A DNA stretch of 64,000 bases from Planctomycetota bacterium (GTDB lineage Bacteria > Planctomycetota > UBA8742 > UBA2392). Positions 9,646-46,337 of the stretch are shown in pieces. The number at the start of each line of letters is the position of its first letter. Position 1 is the first letter of the stretch. Location: the NCBI GenBank assembly GCA_019186845.1, contig JABARW010000019.1:130427-194426 (forward strand). The letters run 5' to 3'. The notes beneath the pieces are model-generated. The model did not search any database. It was not told the DNA's origin and saw nothing but the letters and a program-made list of their open reading frames with translations. The translations under genes and the position numbers were made by a program.

Positions 9646-10242
9646 CTACAGGAACGTGATGGTGAGAGTGTTTTGCATCGCGTTTTGCCCGATGGCCACG
9701 TTTTCCACGGGGTTGGCAACCCAGTCCAAGGCTGGAAGGCCGCTATGCTCCAAGACCAGCACCGTGCGCCCCAGCGGATCCTTGCGCACCAAAAAGCGCA
9801 GTATCCTGCGATCGCGGGCCGCCCCGCAGTGGACCGAGGCCAACTGAAGCAGTTCCCCCAGAAAGTTCAGAAGTTGCCGCCTGCGCACCACGACGCTGTG
9901 GATGCCGCGATAGCGGCGCAGCACCACCACGCCGCACAGTTCCAGCGCGGCAGCCCAAGTGTGCAGCAACTGGTCGAGCAACTCTTCCAGTTCCAGTTTC
10001 TGGGGGGCTTCGGTGTGCGGAGCGTTCGGGGCTCCGTTTGGTCTCTGGCGCAGCGCATCCTCGATGTCCTCGACGAGGTCCAGGGCCGTAACGGCGTCGC
10101 AGCCGTTTTCAACGACGTGGCGCAGTTCAGCCAGCAGCTTGAGCGCATCCACCTTCGCGGCGGTCGGCAGGAGGATGTGACTGATGGGCGGTTGTTCTGG
10201 CCGGGCGGAAACCGTGGGCGGGAAGGAACGTTCAAAGGACAT
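9646..10242 (-). CDS. Hypothetical protein
   Basis: A 198-aa ORF that fills the gap between accC and the RNase HII-like gene on the same strand. No motif is recognised. Confidence 0.3.
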   Translation of the reverse strand: MSFERSFPPTVSARPEQPPISHILLPTAAKVDALKLLAELRHVVENGCDAVTALDLVEDIEDALRQRPNGAPNAPHTEAPQKLELEELLDQLLHTWAAALELCGVVVLRRYRGIHSVVVRRRQLLNFLGELLQLASVHCGAARDRRILRFLVRKDPLGRTVLVLEHSGLPALDWVANPVENVAIGQNAMQNTLTITFL

Positions 10243-10346: not shown

Positions 10347-11693
10347 CTACTTGGCCAAGAGTTCCTTCTCGATGTAACTGGTATGGACGGTGCCGTCGAT
10401 GAAGCGCTTGTCGCTCATGATGCGCAGATGCAGGGGCACTGTGGTCTTGATGCCCTCGATGCGCATTTCCTGCAGGGCGCGCTTCATGCGGGTGATGGCC
10501 TGCATGCGGTCGGGAGCGAACACCAGCAGCTTGCCCACCATGCTGTCGTAGTTCGACGGAATGGTGTAGCCCGCTTCGATATGGCTGTCCCAGCGCACGC
10601 CTGGCCCGCCGGGGATGAAGACCCGCGTGATCTTGCCCGGGCAGGGGCGGAAATCGTTGTCCGGATCCTCGGCGTTGATGCGACACTCGATGGCGTGTCC
10701 GCGCACCTCGACGTCGCTCTGGGAGAATGGCAGCTTCTCGCCAGCCGCCGCCAGAATCTGGGCGCGAATCAGGTCCGTGCGCGTGACCAGCTCGCTCACC
10801 GGGTGCTCGACCTGGATGCGGGTGTTCACTTCCATGAAGTAGAAGTTGTTCTTCGAGTCCACCAGGAACTCGCAGGTGCCCGCAGTCACGTAGTTGGCGG
10901 CCTTGGCCAGCGTCAGCGCGGCTTCACCCATCTTGCGGCGCAGCTCCGGCGTCATGATGGGCGAAGGCGCTTCTTCGACAAGCTTCTGGTGGCGGCGCTG
11001 GAGTGAGCAGTCGCGCTCGCCGCAGTAAACGAAGTTCCCGTGGGAGTCCACGATCATCTGGATTTCGACGTGGCGCGGGCGCTCGAGGTACTTCTCCACG
11101 TAAACGCTGTCGTCCTTGAAGGCGATGGCGGCTTCACTCTTGGCCTGGAGGAAGCCCTGCACCAGCGCGATCTCGTTGTGGGCCACGCGCATGCCGCGGC
11201 CGCCGCCGCCGGCGGCCGCCTTGATGATGACGGGGTAGCCGATGTTGTTGGCAATCTCGATGGCCTGCTCTTCGCTGTCCACGTTCTCCTTCACGCCCGG
11301 CAGCATGGGCACGCCGACCCTTCCGGCCACCTCGCGGGCGCTGGTCTTGTTGCCCAGCAGGCGGATGCTCTCGGGCGAGGGGCCGATGAACGCGATGCCG
11401 GAGCTGCGGCAAACCTCCGCGAAGTGGGCGTTTTCGCTCAGGAATCCGTAGCCGGGGTGGATGGCGTCCACGTCGGAGATCTCGGCCGCGCTCATGATGC
11501 GGGAGATGTCGAGGTAGCTTTTGGCGCTGGGTGCAGGGCCGATGCAGATGGCTTCGTCGGCGAGGTCGAGGTAGGGGGCGCCGCGGTCGGCCTCGGAGAA
11601 AACGCAGACGCAGCGCACGCCGAGTTCGCGGCAGGCGCGGATGACGCGCAGGGCGATTTCACCCCGGTTGGCGATAAGGATTTTTGAGAACAT
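10347..11693 (-). CDS. accC: Acetyl-CoA carboxylase biotin carboxylase subunit
   Basis: ATG at 11693 gives 'MFSKILIANRGEIALRVIRACRELG'. An ATP-grasp domain is present, and the C-terminal 'IEHPVSE...' biotin carboxylase domain. Length 448 aa. Confidence 0.9.
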   Translation of the reverse strand: MFSKILIANRGEIALRVIRACRELGVRCVCVFSEADRGAPYLDLADEAICIGPAPSAKSYLDISRIMSAAEISDVDAIHPGYGFLSENAHFAEVCRSSGIAFIGPSPESIRLLGNKTSAREVAGRVGVPMLPGVKENVDSEEQAIEIANNIGYPVIIKAAAGGGGRGMRVAHNEIALVQGFLQAKSEAAIAFKDDSVYVEKYLERPRHVEIQMIVDSHGNFVYCGERDCSLQRRHQKLVEEAPSPIMTPELRRKMGEAALTLAKAANYVTAGTCEFLVDSKNNFYFMEVNTRIQVEHPVSELVTRTDLIRAQILAAAGEKLPFSQSDVEVRGHAIECRINAEDPDNDFRPCPGKITRVFIPGGPGVRWDSHIEAGYTIPSNYDSMVGKLLVFAPDRMQAITRMKRALQEMRIEGIKTTVPLHLRIMSDKRFIDGTVHTSYIEKELLAK

Positions 11694-18269: not shown

Positions 18270-19250
18270 TCAACGGAAGTACTTTGAGCCCTCTATGGCC
18301 GTGGCCAGTTCTTTGGCTTTGGCGCCGGCTTCCGTGCCTTCCTGCGATTTCTGCACGCCGCGCAACGCCTTCACCTTCTCGGCCTTCTTGAGCTTCTTGT
18401 TCGACTCCAGGGCCTGGCGCAGGGCTTGCCAGGCGCCCATCTCCTTCTTGACGTCCTTGTCTTTGCGCAGCTCCTTGGCCTCCGTTTCAGCTTTGGCGCC
18501 GCTCTCGGTGCCCTTGAAGCCCGAGGCCAGCCTGTCCAGTGCCTCCAGGCAATCGACGTAACGCTTCTCGCCCTTGGCCAGGTCCGCCGCCGCCCGCAGC
18601 TTCTGCTCCATGGCGGCACAGGCCTCGATTATCATCTGTGCATCGGCCACGGCGGCCTCCGAGGGCTTGCCCTCCACTACCGCCTTGGCCAGCTCCGCCG
18701 CCTTGACGTAGTCACCCTTGCCAAAGGCCGCGGCCGCCTTTTCGCAGTCCTTCTCGACCTTGTCCTTGTTCAGGCCGGTGTAGGGGCGCCGGGCCAGTTC
18801 CTTCTCGACGATGCCGTCCCATCCCTCGGAGCCCTTGAAAACCAGCAGGCCCTCGGCGTTCACCACAAAGGTGTTGGGCATAGTCTTGATGTCCCAGCTT
18901 GCCAGCGAACTTTCCGAGGCAGTCACAATCGGAAAGGTGTACTTGTTCTCGCCGGCAAAGGCGAAGTTCTCAAGCGCCGTCAGGCCGTCGCCTTCCACCG
19001 CAAACACGCGCAAGCCGCGCGCCTTGTTCTTCTCCCAAACTTCCTGCAGGTGCGGCAACTGCCGCAGGCAGGGCGCTCACGTAATGCCCCAGATCTTGAT
19101 GATGATGACACTGCCCAGGCAGTCGGCGCGGGTGGTGGCGTCACTGTAAGTGGTGAGGCCGCCCATGGTGAAGTCAGGGGCCGGCGAACCCTGAGTCTGG
19201 GCGCAGGCCAAGGGGGCAAACAACAGCAGGGCCAGCAGGATGAAACGCAT
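18270..19250 (-). CDS. Candidate selenoprotein: secreted TlpA/ResA-like thiol:disulfide oxidoreductase with UxxC motif (in-frame TGA at 19079..19077) and C-terminal helical extension
   Basis: Track ORFs 19077..19322 and 18270..19058 are in the same frame, separated only by the TGA at 19077-19079. Read-through gives '...SVIIIKIWGIT-U-APCLRQLPHLQEVWEKNKARGLRVFAVEGDG...KYTFPIV...WDIKTMPNTFVVNAEGLLVF', a thioredoxin fold where the canonical motif is W-C-x-P-C. Signal peptide 'MRFILLALLLFAPLACAQ' (ATG 19250). Confidence 0.6.
19043..19072 (-). other. Putative bacterial SECIS-like stem-loop immediately 3' of the in-frame UGA
   Basis: The mRNA starting 5 nt after the UGA reads CCUGC-C-UGCGGC-AGUU-GCCGCA-CCU-GCAGG. 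That is a 5-bp lower stem, an internal loop, a 6-bp upper stem and an AGUU apical loop whose G,U lie ~18-19 nt after the UGA. Confidence 0.45.
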
Positions 19251-19302
19251 GGCATCTCCGGAATGGTAAACCAATGGCCCAGTGCGCAGCAGTGTAGCTT
19301 CC

Positions 19303-20151
19303 TCAAGCCTTTTTCGCCGCATCGAGCAGGTTCTGGTAGAGCATCTGGGTGGTCACGGGCCCCACGCCGCCGGGTACGGGCGTGATGAAACCGGCGATCT
19401 GTGAGGCGGAGTCAAAGTCTACGTCGCCGCGGATCTTGCCCTCGCCCACGTCAATGATGCCGACATCGACCACAACGGCTCCGGGCTTGATCCAGTCGCC
19501 CGTCACCATACCCGCTTTGGTTCCGATGGCCGTCACCAGAATGTCTGCCTGGCGCGCGATGGCAGGCAGGTCCCTGCTGCGGCTGTGGCAGAGCGTGACG
19601 GTGCAGTTGCGATCCAGCAACAGCAGGGCTGCGGGCTTGCCCACGATGGTGCTGCGACCGATCACGACCGCGTTGGCCCCGTTCGTGTCAATGCCGCTTT
19701 CCACGGCCAGTTCGACGGCCGCGCGCGCCGTGCAGGGAACGTTCAGGTAGCGCTTCATCACGATGGCGCCGAGGTTGACTTCGTCGATGCCTTCGATGTT
19801 CTTGGCGGGCGCGATCATGCGCGCCAGTTCCTCGCCGTTGAGGTGCTTGGGCACGGGCAGTTGCAGAATGATGCCCGTGACTGAATTGTCCGTGTTGAGT
19901 TCGTGCAGCTTCGCGACCACGGCGTCTTTGGGTGCCTCGGCCGGCAGGTCCACCATGGCATAGTCCACGCCCAGGGCCTCGGCCTGCTTCTTCTGACTCT
20001 TGCGGTAACTGGTGGTTCCGTCATCAACGCCGACGGCAAAACTGACCAGCTTGGCTGCCTTGCCCCTGGTGCGCAGGGCGGCAAACTCCAGGGCCAGCTT
20101 CTCCTTGATGCGTTTGGCGACGGCCTTGCCGTCCAGGATCTTTGCGGGCAT
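19303..20151 (-). CDS. folD: Bifunctional 5,10-methylene-THF dehydrogenase/cyclohydrolase
   Basis: ATG at 20151 gives 'MPAKILDGKAVAKRIKEKL...'. Further matches are 'TGIILQLPVPKHL' and 'VVIGRSTIVGKPAALLLL...CTVTLCHSRS', typical FolD. Length 283 aa. Confidence 0.9.
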   Translation of the reverse strand: MPAKILDGKAVAKRIKEKLALEFAALRTRGKAAKLVSFAVGVDDGTTSYRKSQKKQAEALGVDYAMVDLPAEAPKDAVVAKLHELNTDNSVTGIILQLPVPKHLNGEELARMIAPAKNIEGIDEVNLGAIVMKRYLNVPCTARAAVELAVESGIDTNGANAVVIGRSTIVGKPAALLLLDRNCTVTLCHSRSRDLPAIARQADILVTAIGTKAGMVTGDWIKPGAVVVDVGIIDVGEGKIRGDVDFDSASQIAGFITPVPGGVGPVTTQMLYQNLLDAAKKA

Positions 20152-20321
20152 GGAACCCTCGATGTATGCGCCCGGAAGGCGCAGCAGCATGTCAGTGGGG
20201 GGCGGCAATGCTAGCAATGGGGCCGGGGCTCGACAGTGGCCCCAAGCCCGCGTTCGCTATAAACGTCAAGCACTTTATCGCTTGCGCTTTGCCCGACACT
20301 GCTAGATTGCCCTTGTTCCCA

Positions 20322-21641
20322 ATGAGGCAAGACGTGACCACGGCAACAGCACAACTCAACTTCGGCGACGCCAAGGCGCTGGACGCTTCTCTCTCGGACA
20401 ACGTGCGCGGACTCAAGGGCAGCGAAATCCTTAAGATCGCTGCCGCTGTACGCGAGATGATTGCCCAGGGCAAGCAGGTCTGCAACCTGACCGTGGGCGA
20501 CTTCAACCCGAAGTTCTTCCCCATCCCTGCCGCGCTGCGTGAAGGCATCGCCCGCGCCCTGACCGGCGGTGAAACCAACTACCCTCCCTCCGATGGCGTG
20601 CTGGCCCTGCGCAAGTCCGTGGCTGAGTACGCCGCGCGCGAGTTCAGCGTGCGCTACCCCGTCGAGGGTGTGCTGATTGCTGCGGGCGCGCGACCCATTC
20701 TGTACGGCACCTACCGCTGCGTGCTCAATCCCGGCGACAAAGTTGTGTACGGCCTGCCCAGCTGGAACAACAACCACTACTCCTGGATCGCCCAAGCCAA
20801 CGCCATCGAGGTCGTCACCCAGGCGCGGCATGGCTTTCAGCCCACCCTGGACGACTTCCGCCCTCACCTCCATGACGCCAACCTGTTCTGTCTGTGCACG
20901 CCCAGCAACCCCACGGGCACAGTGATGGAGCCCGAGGTCCTGCGCGAGCTGATGCTGGGCGTAGTGGAGGAAAACGAGCGCCGCGCCAGGGCGGGCAAAC
21001 GCCTGCTGTTCGTGCTCCATGACCAGGTCTATGCCTCGCTGGTGTTTGGCGAGGCCAGGCATGTGCATCCCTGTGCATTGGTGCCGCAGAGTGCGCCCTA
21101 TGTGATTTCGCTGGACGCGATCTCGAAGTCGCTGGCGGGCACGGGTGTGCGCGTGGGTTGGGTGCTGGCGGCGCCGGCGGTGGTGGCGCGCATGCGGGAC
21201 TTTCTGGGGCATGTGGGCGCCTGGGCGCCGCGCGCCGAGCAGGTGGCGGTGGCGGACTTCCTGGGCAATCCCCAGGCGCTTTCGGCCTTCCGGCGGGAAA
21301 TGGACACTAAGGTCCAGGTGCTGCTGAACGCCCTCTACGGCGGCTTCATGAAAATGAAGCAATCGGGCCTTCCGGTGGATTGTGTGCAGCCTCAGGGGGC
21401 GATTTACCTCTCGCTGCAGCTCAATCTCATCGGAAAGAGCTTTGAGGGCCGCAGGATTGCGAGCAACGCGGACATCGGCCAGCTGCTGCTGGAGCGCGCG
21501 GGCATGGCGGTGGTTCCCTTCCAGGCCTTTGGCCTGCGCGAAGAAAGCGGCTGGTTCAGGCTCAGCGTGGGCGCGGTCAGCCCGGCGGACATCGAGACCT
21601 GCCTGCCTCGTGTCAAGTCTCTTCTGGAAGCCGTGCGTTAG
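20322..21641 (+). CDS. PLP-dependent aminotransferase (class I/II fold)
   Basis: ATG at 20322 gives 'MRQDVTTA...'. It has 'NLTVGDFNPKFFPIP', 'CTPSNPTGTVM' and 'VISLDAISKSLAGTGVRVGW' (the PLP-lysine region). Length 439 aa. Confidence 0.8.
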   Translation: MRQDVTTATAQLNFGDAKALDASLSDNVRGLKGSEILKIAAAVREMIAQGKQVCNLTVGDFNPKFFPIPAALREGIARALTGGETNYPPSDGVLALRKSVAEYAAREFSVRYPVEGVLIAAGARPILYGTYRCVLNPGDKVVYGLPSWNNNHYSWIAQANAIEVVTQARHGFQPTLDDFRPHLHDANLFCLCTPSNPTGTVMEPEVLRELMLGVVEENERRARAGKRLLFVLHDQVYASLVFGEARHVHPCALVPQSAPYVISLDAISKSLAGTGVRVGWVLAAPAVVARMRDFLGHVGAWAPRAEQVAVADFLGNPQALSAFRREMDTKVQVLLNALYGGFMKMKQSGLPVDCVQPQGAIYLSLQLNLIGKSFEGRRIASNADIGQLLLERAGMAVVPFQAFGLREESGWFRLSVGAVSPADIETCLPRVKSLLEAVR

Positions 21642-44462: not shown

Positions 44463-46337
44463 CTACTTCTTGCCGCTGGGAAGCTCGTAGGTCCTGCGGT
44501 CGTCGTCGGTAAAAACGAAGGGCTTCTGATTCACGCCCTCGAGGTCCGCGATCTGACCGACCTTGGCCAGGACATAGGCCGTGAGTTCATCGACGCTGAC
44601 GTCGCGGTCCTTGTTCGCATCCGCCTTGCCCGACAGGGCCTCCAGCACGAAGGCCGTGAACAGGCCGCCGCCGAGTTCCTCCATCTCAAGGGCGCGCTCG
44701 GCCGAAGGCAGGCCCACCTGCGCGCCCGTGGCGCTCAGCACCACAAGGCGTGTGCCGCGCTCGGCGCAAAGCTGGAAGATCGGGGCCAGCAGCGAGTGGG
44801 GCTTTTCGTTCTCCGCCCGCGCCGGCAGCTTGGCCAACAGCGCGTCCGTTACGGCGCAGCGCGAATCGCCTCGCGCCAGGAACGAACAATCCAGATAGAG
44901 CACCAGGGTGCGGGGACGCTCTTCCAGCGCGGCGTCCACCAGCTCGATCAGGGGCGTGATTTCGAGCGGCGTATCGGCCGCCGAGACCGGAGGCTGGGCC
45001 AAAGCCAGGCCGAGGCGGCCGTCCTGCGTCAATGTGCCGGTGCCGCAGAACATGAGGAAGAACTCATCGTTGCCGCGCGCCAGGGGCGTGACCTTGCCGA
45101 TGGCCTCGATCACGGCGGCGCGTGTGGCGGCAGCGCCCGTGAGGGTGGTGACGGCCCCCTCGGTCAGGGGGCGCCGCGTGGCCGTCAGGGCAAAGCGCGA
45201 AAGGGCCGTAGCGTCGGCTTCGGCGTAGCGCGTCATGGGCAGGCCGGGCCGCCCCTGGGAGTCCACGCCGACAATCACCCCGGCGCGGCGGCGCAAGTCG
45301 CCCAGGAAGTCGGGATCTTCCAGTTTGCGGGAAAGGTCCTGTGTGACAAAGCGCAGGGCCTGCTTGTGGGCCGCACACTCGCCGATGGGAATCATCTTCG
45401 AGCCGACTTTGACCCAGTTGCTCTCGCCCATGTAGCCGGGGGTGCTGAAGATGGAGAGCGCGTTGAAGCCGTGGTCAAAGTCGTCAAGGCTGCGCACCAA
45501 AGTTTCCTTGGGCGCCAGGCGCTTGCCCAGGGCGAGATTGCCCGTGGAGGTGGGGTAGAGCCTCAGGTCAATGTGAACGTTGACGTCAAAATCCTCGTCG
45601 GCGATCCACCATGTGAAAACAGGGCTCATCATCCACCAGATGAACATGTTCCAGGCGTAGGCGCCGTTGCTCTCGATGTAGCCGACATCATGGCGGCGCA
45701 CGGAAGGCTGCATGACGACATCCAGCCCCTGCGCCAGAGCGAGGCGACGCAGCTCTTCGGGCGTGGAATTGGGACGCGCGCCTTCGATGGGCTCGATGCG
45801 CTCGAACATGCGATACTTCACCAGCACGTCCAGCAGGCGTTTGTGGATGCCCGTGGGCCCGTTGAGTTGCTCGGGGTTGGGGGCCAGCACCCAGCGCTTG
45901 GTGTCCTCGACGTTGGTCTTTTCAGGATTGAGTTCCAGCTCCAGCACGCAGGGAGCCAGGCCAACGCGCAGGCCCAGGGGCTGCCAGCCCGCGGGCACTA
46001 TCTTCTCGTTCTTGACGTCCTCTTCGAGGTTGGGCGTCTCGATGGTCGAACAGGCCGAGCAGGCCAGCACCAAGGCTGCTAGCGCGCACAACGCGGCCAA
46101 CGTTGAACCGCGCCTGCCTTCAGCAGGCCGCCGAAAAGGTCGAAGTGCCGACTTTCCAGGAAGGCAAGGAGCGCAGTCCCCAGGCACGTAAACCCGGCGG
46201 CCTGCAGCAAGAGACTCCTTCGGCGGGGCACCCTGAACCCGATGCACCCCTGAAGCGGTCCGTTCTGACTGGGATGATTCCATGTATTTGCCACCTGACG
46301 CCCCCGATCCGGCACGGGGCGAAGTCCAATTCCTCAC
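44463..46337 (-). CDS. Lipoprotein with C-terminal caspase-like (peptidase C14/CHAT-like) domain, catalytic His apparently substituted
   Basis: Lipobox 'LAALVLACSACS'. The C-terminus reads 'EFFLMFCGTGTL...(~50 aa)...LVLYLDCSFLAR...GGGLFTAFVLEALSGKADANKDRDVSVDELTAYV', collinear with caspase HG...DxCxSG blocks but with GTG in place of GHG. The GTG at 46337 overlaps the upstream stop by 1 nt (TAGTG); the true start is uncertain. Confidence 0.5.
   Translation of the reverse strand: MRNWTSPRAGSGASGGKYMESSQSERTASGVHRVQGAPPKESLAAGRRVYVPGDCAPCLPGKSALRPFRRPAEGRRGSTLAALCALAALVLACSACSTIETPNLEEDVKNEKIVPAGWQPLGLRVGLAPCVLELELNPEKTNVEDTKRWVLAPNPEQLNGPTGIHKRLLDVLVKYRMFERIEPIEGARPNSTPEELRRLALAQGLDVVMQPSVRRHDVGYIESNGAYAWNMFIWWMMSPVFTWWIADEDFDVNVHIDLRLYPTSTGNLALGKRLAPKETLVRSLDDFDHGFNALSIFSTPGYMGESNWVKVGSKMIPIGECAAHKQALRFVTQDLSRKLEDPDFLGDLRRRAGVIVGVDSQGRPGLPMTRYAEADATALSRFALTATRRPLTEGAVTTLTGAAATRAAVIEAIGKVTPLARGNDEFFLMFCGTGTLTQDGRLGLALAQPPVSAADTPLEITPLIELVDAALEERPRTLVLYLDCSFLARGDSRCAVTDALLAKLPARAENEKPHSLLAPIFQLCAERGTRLVVLSATGAQVGLPSAERALEMEELGGGLFTAFVLEALSGKADANKDRDVSVDELTAYVLAKVGQIADLEGVNQKPFVFTDDDRRTYELPSGKK

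Follow-up and report, generated by a model that had tools for sequence, protein, structure and literature searches.

Two open reading frames (ORFs) on the minus strand of a 64-kb stretch of the Planctomycetota contig JABARW010000019.1 (the window, meaning the whole stretch of DNA analysed, to which all positions refer unless another locus is named) follow one another in a single frame and are separated by one TGA, which raises the question of whether this codon ends a short secreted peptide or is decoded as selenocysteine (Sec, U in protein sequences) in the active site of a longer redox protein. We conclude, with a probability of roughly 0.88, that 19250..18270 on the minus strand is one gene encoding a genuine selenoprotein, an exported thiol-disulfide oxidoreductase in which the UGA of codon 58 is read as Sec. 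Carrying this conclusion are the single frame, the conservation of the UGA, the alignment of Sec with Cys, the conserved hairpin 3′ of the UGA, the fold and the domain architecture, all of which were observed in the sequences compared. The gene, its proposed Sec codon and the parts of its product (amino acids abbreviated aa; TPR, tetratricopeptide repeat) are located as follows.

18270..19250, minus strand: complete coding sequence of the proposed selenoprotein, 326 codons including Sec58, with the terminal TGA stop at 18270-18272
19077..19079, minus strand: in-frame TGA, the proposed Sec codon (residue 58), found at the same codon across subfamilies A, B and C and aligned with the first Cys of CxxC
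19200..19250, minus strand: predicted signal peptide of the Sec secretion-pathway type, MRFILLALLLFAPLACA, with cleavage after A-C-A, as read from the sequence
18828..19193, minus strand: TlpA/ResA-like thioredoxin-fold domain, aa 20-141, with the active site U58-A-P-C61 and the cis-Pro loop T-M-P
18273..18758, minus strand: C-terminal all-helical TPR-like domain, aa 165-326

A single frame with a conserved internal UGA

A preliminary description of this locus had taken the ORFs 19077..19322 and 18270..19058 of a mechanical ORF list to be two halves of one frame broken only by a TGA, and a re-reading of the frame bore this out: the minus strand from 19250 to 18270 is a single frame of 326 codons whose sole internal interruption is the TGA at 19077-19079. 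The frame opens at ATG 19250 with MRFILLALLLFAPLACAQTQG and reads ...IIIKIWGIT-TGA-APCLRQLPHLQE... around the interruption (in a longer view, GSVIIIKIWGIT-TGA-APCLRQLPHLQEVWEK). Only its upstream boundary had to be revised, as ATG 19250 is more likely to be the start than ATG 19322; the former is preferred because it opens the signal peptide common to all homologs and has GGAG 7–10 nt upstream, and the latter is disfavoured because it falls within the last part of folD, the gene upstream. The N-terminus is hydrophobic and ends in AxA or AQ in all reconstructed homologs, consistent with the signal peptide proposed earlier, and suggests from sequence that the protein is exported. The terminator of the gene is likewise a TGA (18270-18272, minus strand), so that a single mRNA would have two UGA codons, the first recoded and the second ending translation.

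Homologous DNA was read at the loci of protein-search relatives and at further loci from a species-representative genome collection and metagenomes (NCBI metagenome-assembled genomes (MAGs) and ENA, JGI and Logan assemblies), and in more than 20 distinct homologous loci from Planctomycetota MAGs and metagenomes, at 23–97% identity, the TGA occupies the identical codon in all. It stands at this codon in 17 of 17 unique sequences of subfamily A, and in the two subfamilies reached by profile search, B (KYWG[PT][KR]-U-GPC-VKALPS) and the more distant C (FFATW-U-GPC). The segment upstream of the TGA is conserved as well, comprising the signal peptide, APDF[TS]MGG... and V[IV]IK[IV]WGIT-U-[AG]PC. 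The presence of the TGA in independent NCBI, ENA, JGI and Logan assemblies answers the concern, raised when the TGA was first described, that it might be a sequencing error. Named genome carriers are labelled as Planctomycetota MAGs, and one more record bears no label but ‘uncultured bacterium’. ENA contig ERZ761602 NODE-363 matches the window at 100% identity, and the nearest genome to the window is MAG PLA1 (GCA_003576915.1, 96–97% identity).

Selection was then compared on the two sides of the TGA by the method of Nei and Gojobori in eight pairs of subfamily-A genes. The ratio of nonsynonymous to synonymous substitution rates (dN/dS) was 0.08–0.30 over the 34 codons upstream and 0.08–0.32 over the 68 codons downstream, and a ninth pair, the window and its 97% relative PLA1 (locus L001), showed zero nonsynonymous changes downstream of the TGA. 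These low ratios on both sides indicate that both are translated in one frame under purifying selection. Elsewhere in this genome UGA is an ordinary stop: it ends folD, the gene itself and 11 of the 28 long window ORFs with high G+C at third codon positions (high GC3).

Protein databases present a different picture of the same gene. A query of the joined sequence with C in place of U found 15 relatives at 37–97% identity, none of them extending upstream of the TGA; 12 of the 15 were 260–263 aa long with 74–80% query cover, and the other three (246–257 aa) began further downstream. Similarly, 27 of the 29 matches of two word-index protein searches were ~260-aa fragments beginning just after the motif. 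Since these fragments begin at or after one shared place, gene callers appear to have truncated the homologs there, in keeping with the mis-annotation as fragments that the preliminary description had noted for selenoproteins of this kind.

Two further observations concern members of the family outside the window. One ENA scaffold carries two tandem subfamily-B paralogs (L029:9794-10789, with its TGA at 9989, and L029:10856-11908, with its TGA at 11081), which read KYWGTR-U-GPC and KYWGPN-U-PPC and both combine the in-frame TGA with a GAAGGC-GUU-GCCUUC hairpin. A truncated member on a 1.3-kb contig (P0005, GPROT1_03612) was deposited at NCBI as ‘Gammaproteobacteria bacterium’, which is probably a binning or labelling artefact because all labelled genome-scale carriers are Planctomycetota.

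The protein restored by reading through the TGA has a recognisable fold, and the TGA falls on its key residue. With U replaced by C, it matches the Pfam families PF00578 AhpC-TSA (45 bits against a cut-off of 26) and PF08534 Redoxin (32.7 against 26.6), and it places a redox dyad at the N-terminus of helix 1 together with a cis-Pro loop, as a thioredoxin fold does. The best match among solved structures is Bacillus subtilis ResA (E = 7.7e-13), in which FLNFWGTWCEPCKKEFPYM aligns to IIKIWGIT[U]APCLRQLPHL with U on the first Cys of CEPC. Likewise, in a MAFFT alignment the U of subfamilies A, B and C falls in the first-Cys column of 12 uninterrupted two-domain homologs, whose motifs are WG[IVL][NDKT]C[GP]PC or FWATWC[GP]PC; both alignments agree with the initial placement of the UGA at the first Cys of a CxxC motif. 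The closest uninterrupted Cys homolog (P0034) shares 41% identity over aa 1-322, a span that includes the segment upstream of the TGA.

Downstream of the thioredoxin fold, an AlphaFold2 model of residues 59-326 (24-sequence alignment), which excludes beta1 and the residues ahead of U58, reached a mean predicted local distance difference test score (pLDDT) of 88.4. In this model the Lys/Ala/Glu-rich C-terminus appears as a conserved, confidently modelled helical domain and not as low-complexity filler. The extension noticed in the preliminary description is thus real, but its characterisation as unusual did not survive, as a TPR-like domain of this kind is common to known selenoprotein families. 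Among deposited structures, chain A of PDB 28db (‘Redoxin domain protein’, 161 residues, WGINCPPC..MPHLQELQEKF, E = 1.2e-11) is very like the Cys forms of the family and is possibly the nearest experimental counterpart of the thioredoxin domain.

The hairpin 3′ of the UGA

Immediately downstream of the UGA lies a hairpin that we evaluated as a candidate bacterial Sec insertion sequence (SECIS); its parts are listed below, the full hairpin being the minimum free energy (MFE) structure.

19051..19066, minus strand: apical mini-helix of the candidate SECIS, UGCGGC-AGUU-GCCGCA, nt 14-29 counted from the U of the UGA, with loop nucleotides G21 and U22
19043..19072, minus strand: full bipartite hairpin including the lower stem CCUGC/GCAGG, the lower stem being lineage-specific

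The geometry is exactly as first described, with the arms of the lower stem at 19072-19068 (CCUGC) and 19047-19043 (GCAGG) enclosing the UGCGGC/GCCGCA helix and its AGUU loop. This structure has an MFE of -24.3 kcal/mol (z = -2.35), a value reached by 5 of 200 dinucleotide shuffles; by thermodynamics alone, the hairpin is only modestly better than chance in a sequence of 65% GC, and it is comparative evidence that carries the case.

That evidence begins with synonymous sites. Codons +4 to +8 (Leu-Arg-Gln-Leu-Pro) are spelled CTG CGG CAG TTG CCG wherever the residues are kept (14–17 of the 17 subfamily-A sequences), including the rare Leu codon TTG in 17 of 17, and the one synonymous exception is CCT at Pro +8 in a sequence (L007) that has its own hairpin. 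Within the same subfamily, the Gly and Pro codons just ahead of this frozen block use four codons each, and the codons after it vary freely. From this pattern it follows that the frozen positions are exactly those of the 6-bp helix and the AGUU loop.

Furthermore, the hairpin persists where its sequence has changed. Subfamily B has VKALPS in place of LRQLPH and forms the helix GAAGGC-GUU-GCCUUC at the same spot, with three base pairs changed on both sides relative to subfamily A, and subfamily C forms GGGGUGC-CGUCGC-GCACCUC. In all three subfamilies the loop G-U occupies nt 21-22 or 22-23, counted from the U that opens the UGA; the helix of 6–7 bp begins 10–11 nt after the UGA, and the loops are AGUU, GUU or CGUCGC. 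These hairpin types were compared by hand as three or four distinct sequences, the 5′ arm in subfamily B being shifted by 1 nt with no indel in the coding alignment. Taken together, the frozen synonymous sites and the compensatory changes argue that the hairpin is conserved at the RNA level.

In the SECIS of Escherichia coli fdhF the loop bases are G23/U24. The present hairpin resembles that element in lying just 3′ of the UGA inside the ORF and in having a short G+C-rich apical helix with a loop G-U, and differs from it in its unrelated sequence, its loop of 3–6 nt, the lack of an evident bulged U and a loop 1–2 nt nearer to the UGA. More generally, the published description of bacterial SECIS elements calls for a stem-loop that follows the UGA directly and has a G in its small apical loop (PMC1088965), and the hairpin here, which lies within the ORF, fits that description.

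Proposed selenocysteine insertion and competing explanations

The proposed mechanism is as follows. With the ribosome at UGA-58, a SelB-type factor would bind the 6-bp AGUU hairpin, beginning 10 nt beyond the UGA within the coding sequence, and would deliver Sec-tRNA(Sec) at codon 58. The N-terminal signal peptide would direct secretion of the pre-protein by the Sec pathway. In the periplasm, the U58 selenolate, replacing the nucleophilic N-terminal Cys of a TlpA/ResA-type CxxC, would attack substrate disulfides or other oxidised thiols, C61 would resolve the selenenylsulfide, and the TPR-like helical domain would probably bind or position a client or partner protein. Sec as the inserted residue, the export of the protein, its reductase chemistry and such a role for the TPR-like domain are inferred.

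Indirect support for Sec insertion comes from related genomes. Several Planctomycetes are reported to hold complete Sec-insertion gene sets (PMC4807772), and a second candidate selenoprotein lies ~9 kb from a family gene on MAG contig CALLQI010000011.1 (L016:217-1377, minus strand). This candidate is a secreted ORF of ~350 residues from its likely start Met (385 codons between stops) with a TGA at L016:1044, and its motif FIEFGSYT-U-PPC is the classic deiodinase Sec site; it matches PF00837 T4_deiodinase in Pfam at 57.5 bits (cut-off 27) and the NCBIfam model deiodinase_rel at 70 bits, under the cut-off of 250. Downstream of its TGA is a hairpin with a GGU loop, CCAUUUC-GGU-GAAAUGG. Within the window, TGAs flanked by open frame on either side were screened for other selenoprotein genes, both with a hairpin filter and without one, and gave nothing convincing; the sole other match, a TGA at 45820 (minus strand), was dismissed as a low-complexity alternative frame.

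Several results weigh against our conclusion. No selA, selB, selD or tRNA-Sec gene was found in the 64-kb window and ~310 kb of homolog flanks, the rest of the genomes lying outside this search. ARAGORN gave no tRNA-Sec in the window and 22 loci, and no tRNA gene at all in the window; tblastn with the E. coli SelA, SelB and SelD proteins gave no match in the window and loci (376 kb). Both outcomes agree with the preliminary description, which had found none of these genes in the window. Rfam gave no match in the whole window at gathering score and no SECIS family on 18950-19150 at E <= 10, where the chance matches in the hairpin region (Twister-sister at E = 2.8 and snoRNAs) were dismissed. 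Among homologs the folding z ranges from -0.4 to -2.5, making folding energy weak evidence by itself; in the L004/L023 lineage (z = +0.55) the helix is interrupted by an A.C mismatch, for which an additional A-U pair compensates in part; the lower stem is shortened or absent in most homologs, the conserved part being the apical 6–7 bp helix and loop; and strict covariation comes from three independent hairpin types only. Finally, the gene neighbourhood is not conserved between lineages and indicates no redox partner of the CcdA/DsbD type and no substrate. The initial proposal of a SECIS stands for the apical helix and loop, but does not extend to a conserved lower stem and is not matched by an Rfam SECIS family. 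The missing Rfam match carries little weight given that bacterial SECIS elements are too diverse for a general model (PMC12013277).

The conserved UGA, the hairpin and the purifying selection demonstrate recoding and not the identity of the residue inserted, and with no Sec machinery seen in the searched sequence, the UGA might instead be translated as Cys or Trp. A near-cognate or dedicated suppressor tRNA would then read it, with the hairpin either stimulating read-through or serving a SelB that carries a Cys-charged tRNA, and translation would yield an ordinary protein with CxxC (or WxxC). There are bacteria for which unusual tRNAs have been proposed to insert Cys in a SelB-dependent manner. 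We consider this unlikely, as the site is that of the nucleophilic Cys of CxxC, the classic position of Sec/Cys exchange, and the hairpin's placement and its G-U loop are those expected of a SelB site. For the insertion of Cys a TGC or TGT codon would suffice, as in 28 CxxC homologs, and the fact that three divergent subfamilies have all retained both UGA and hairpin argues for a residue with no other means of being encoded. The second UGA at a deiodinase-like Sec site in the related MAG also speaks for Sec over Cys or Trp. A different objection follows from the mechanical ORF lists and all database annotations, which show two ORFs: the UGA might stop a 57-residue secreted peptide, and a part of 262–268 residues might start separately at TTG 19058. 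Such a split would fall between beta1 and the active-site helix of one thioredoxin fold, costing it the first active-site residue and leaving a downstream piece without a signal peptide. Nor do the homologs agree on an internal start, which would be TTG at codon +7 for subfamily A and GTG at codon +4 for B and would lie at other positions elsewhere; uninterrupted Cys homologs also align across the junction, such that we judge two separate products to be very improbable.

Trivial explanations of the TGA fare worse. When a single metagenomic contig shows a lone in-frame stop, the usual cause is an error or a pseudogene, and the TGA could in principle be a recent nonsense mutation or a miscall of TGC or TGT; however, its recurrence in more than 20 loci from different samples and pipelines, at 23–97% identity, along with purifying selection on both sides and synonymous constraint exactly over the hairpin, leaves this a very slight chance. 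An alternative genetic code, with UGA as a sense codon for Trp or Gly, would explain an in-frame TGA without special machinery, but folD, the gene's own stop and the 11 of 28 long high-GC3 window ORFs all end in TGA, and only one codon of the gene is affected, the active-site one; a 65% GC genome is, moreover, unlike known lineages with reassigned UGA, and the probability left to this explanation is negligible. Sequencing error, pseudogene and alternative code were accordingly ruled out on the conserved TGA, dN/dS and TGA stop usage, and we retain Sec at UGA-58 as the preferred interpretation.

Known relatives, family size and gene neighbourhoods

UxxC thioredoxin-fold selenoproteins are long established in bacteria, among them Prx-like, thiol:disulfide interchange, Trx, Grx, DsbA-like and DsbG-like proteins. 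The ‘Prx-like thiol:disulfide oxidoreductase’ and the ‘thiol:disulfide interchange protein’ are UxxC families assigned to PF00578 / PF13098 (PMC13188914, PMC1794560), and the present gene shares with them a PF00578 match, UxxC, a bacterial SECIS hairpin 3′ of the UGA and Cys homologs, by which features its sequence places it in this known UxxC thioredoxin-fold kind. Those two families were defined mainly in Deltaproteobacteria and Firmicutes and are single-domain, whereas this gene is from Planctomycetota and adds a signal peptide, a TPR-like domain of ~160 residues and the motif WGIT-U-[AG]PC, a contrast drawn from published descriptions of the families, whose reference sequences are WP_010940744.1 and WP_011366075.1.

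A similar architecture is found in two curated families, NF041382 (‘VPGUxxT family thioredoxin-like (seleno)protein, type 1’) and NF041054 (‘ResA-like WAxxUGC motif-containing protein’), which at ~350 residues combine a Trx-like (seleno)domain with a helical C-terminus, as here. Homology to NF041382 covers the C-terminal domain (aa 165-316; E = 2.8e-11, and 6.9e-21 with subfamily B), and the Trx part with the linker matches NF041054 weakly (E = 4e-4). Since the helical domain is shared with curated selenoprotein families, the architecture as such was already known. Both models nevertheless score below their cut-offs (43.3 against 350 bits for NF041382, from the C-terminal domain only, and 19.7 against 300 bits for NF041054), and the active site is WGIT-U-xPC in place of VPGUxxT or WAxxUGC, respectively. 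By these comparisons the gene represents a sibling family of NF041382 and NF041054 that is without a curated model, and not a member of either.

Against the classical extracytoplasmic reductases, NCBIfam scores were also below cut-off (ResA 56 against 170 bits, StoA 39 against 210, DsbE 22 against 123 and TlpA 21.6 against 230). The cut-off of every specific curated family tested was missed; the protein is of the same fold class and not an ortholog of ResA, DsbE/CcmG, TlpA or StoA, from which it also differs in having Sec in place of the nucleophilic Cys and an extra TPR-like domain. Linkage to cytochrome c maturation, CcdA or Sco was seen in none of the neighbourhoods viewed. A further parallel is CnoX (YbbN), a cytoplasmic ‘chaperedoxin’ without Sec in which a thioredoxin domain is fused to a TPR domain; the likeness lies in the order of a Trx fold followed by a TPR-like domain and in the presence of members with a decayed CxxC, as in E. 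coli CnoX, and it is offered as analogy only, with no sequence or specific structural match to CnoX.

The family is large. A HMMER search with the part following the UGA against 1.84 billion cluster representatives gave 1070 clusters (50% identity) at E <= 1e-10, and the family proteins retrieved include uninterrupted ones of 330–350 residues with the same architecture. Of 177 such proteins, 99 begin right after the motif, 28 are full-length with CxxC, 7 have one Cys, 20 are Cys-less and 23 are fragments. The 99 are presumably truncated Sec forms, and every one of them whose DNA was read had the TGA; the scale of the family, with 99 of 177 as apparent truncated Sec forms, is mildly notable. 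Full-length Cys-less forms (e.g., P0032, P0049, P0054 and P0058) keep the TPR-like domain, and this retention suggests that the domain has a role independent of redox chemistry.

All the public protein records found for this family are ‘hypothetical proteins’ of ~260 residues that lack the N-terminus and with it the signal peptide and the active site, and ~100 clusters at 50% identity appear to be affected by the annotation error; recognising the UGA restores a complete exported redox enzyme. Organisms with Sec in extracytoplasmic thiol-disulfide enzymes would then also include Planctomycetota of activated sludge and like habitats, and the Sec, Cys and Cys-less forms of one two-domain protein offer a natural series for asking what Sec buys a periplasmic reductase. 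Conceptual novelty is limited, in that knowledge of the Sec-insertion mechanism and of thioredoxin-fold selenoproteins is unchanged. More speculatively, the gene might belong to a large uncurated exported ‘TlpA-TPR’ family, mostly of Planctomycetota and with the Sec form in the majority, and its product might act outside the cytoplasm as a ‘chaperedoxin’ that depends on Sec, a reductase or holdase guided by its TPR-like domain, coupled in one sub-clade to a formylglycine-generating-enzyme-like (FGE-like) protein. We regard this broader proposal as doubtful; if a family with a Sec majority is real, a substantial periplasmic selenoproteome would be maintained by these wastewater and environmental bacteria, which are largely aerobic.

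The FGE-like protein is encoded in one sub-clade of subfamily A, where a secreted protein of 498 residues combining FGE-sulfatase and Thioredoxin_7 lies directly downstream on the same strand (L008:5805-7301). The same gene occurs at L009, L012, L013, L014, L017 and L018 (68–100% identical, five distinct genomes) and is absent from the window's own lineage; its product is a possible functional partner or client.

In the window, the upstream neighbour is folD (19303-20217, minus strand; its THF_DHG_CYH domains were seen in the syntenic locus L001), whose TGA stop lies 50 nt ahead of the selenoprotein start, making co-transcription possible. Beyond folD, an aminotransferase gene (20142-21641, plus strand) diverges, and this folD/aminotransferase order is kept in the 97% relative PLA1 and not in the other subfamilies.

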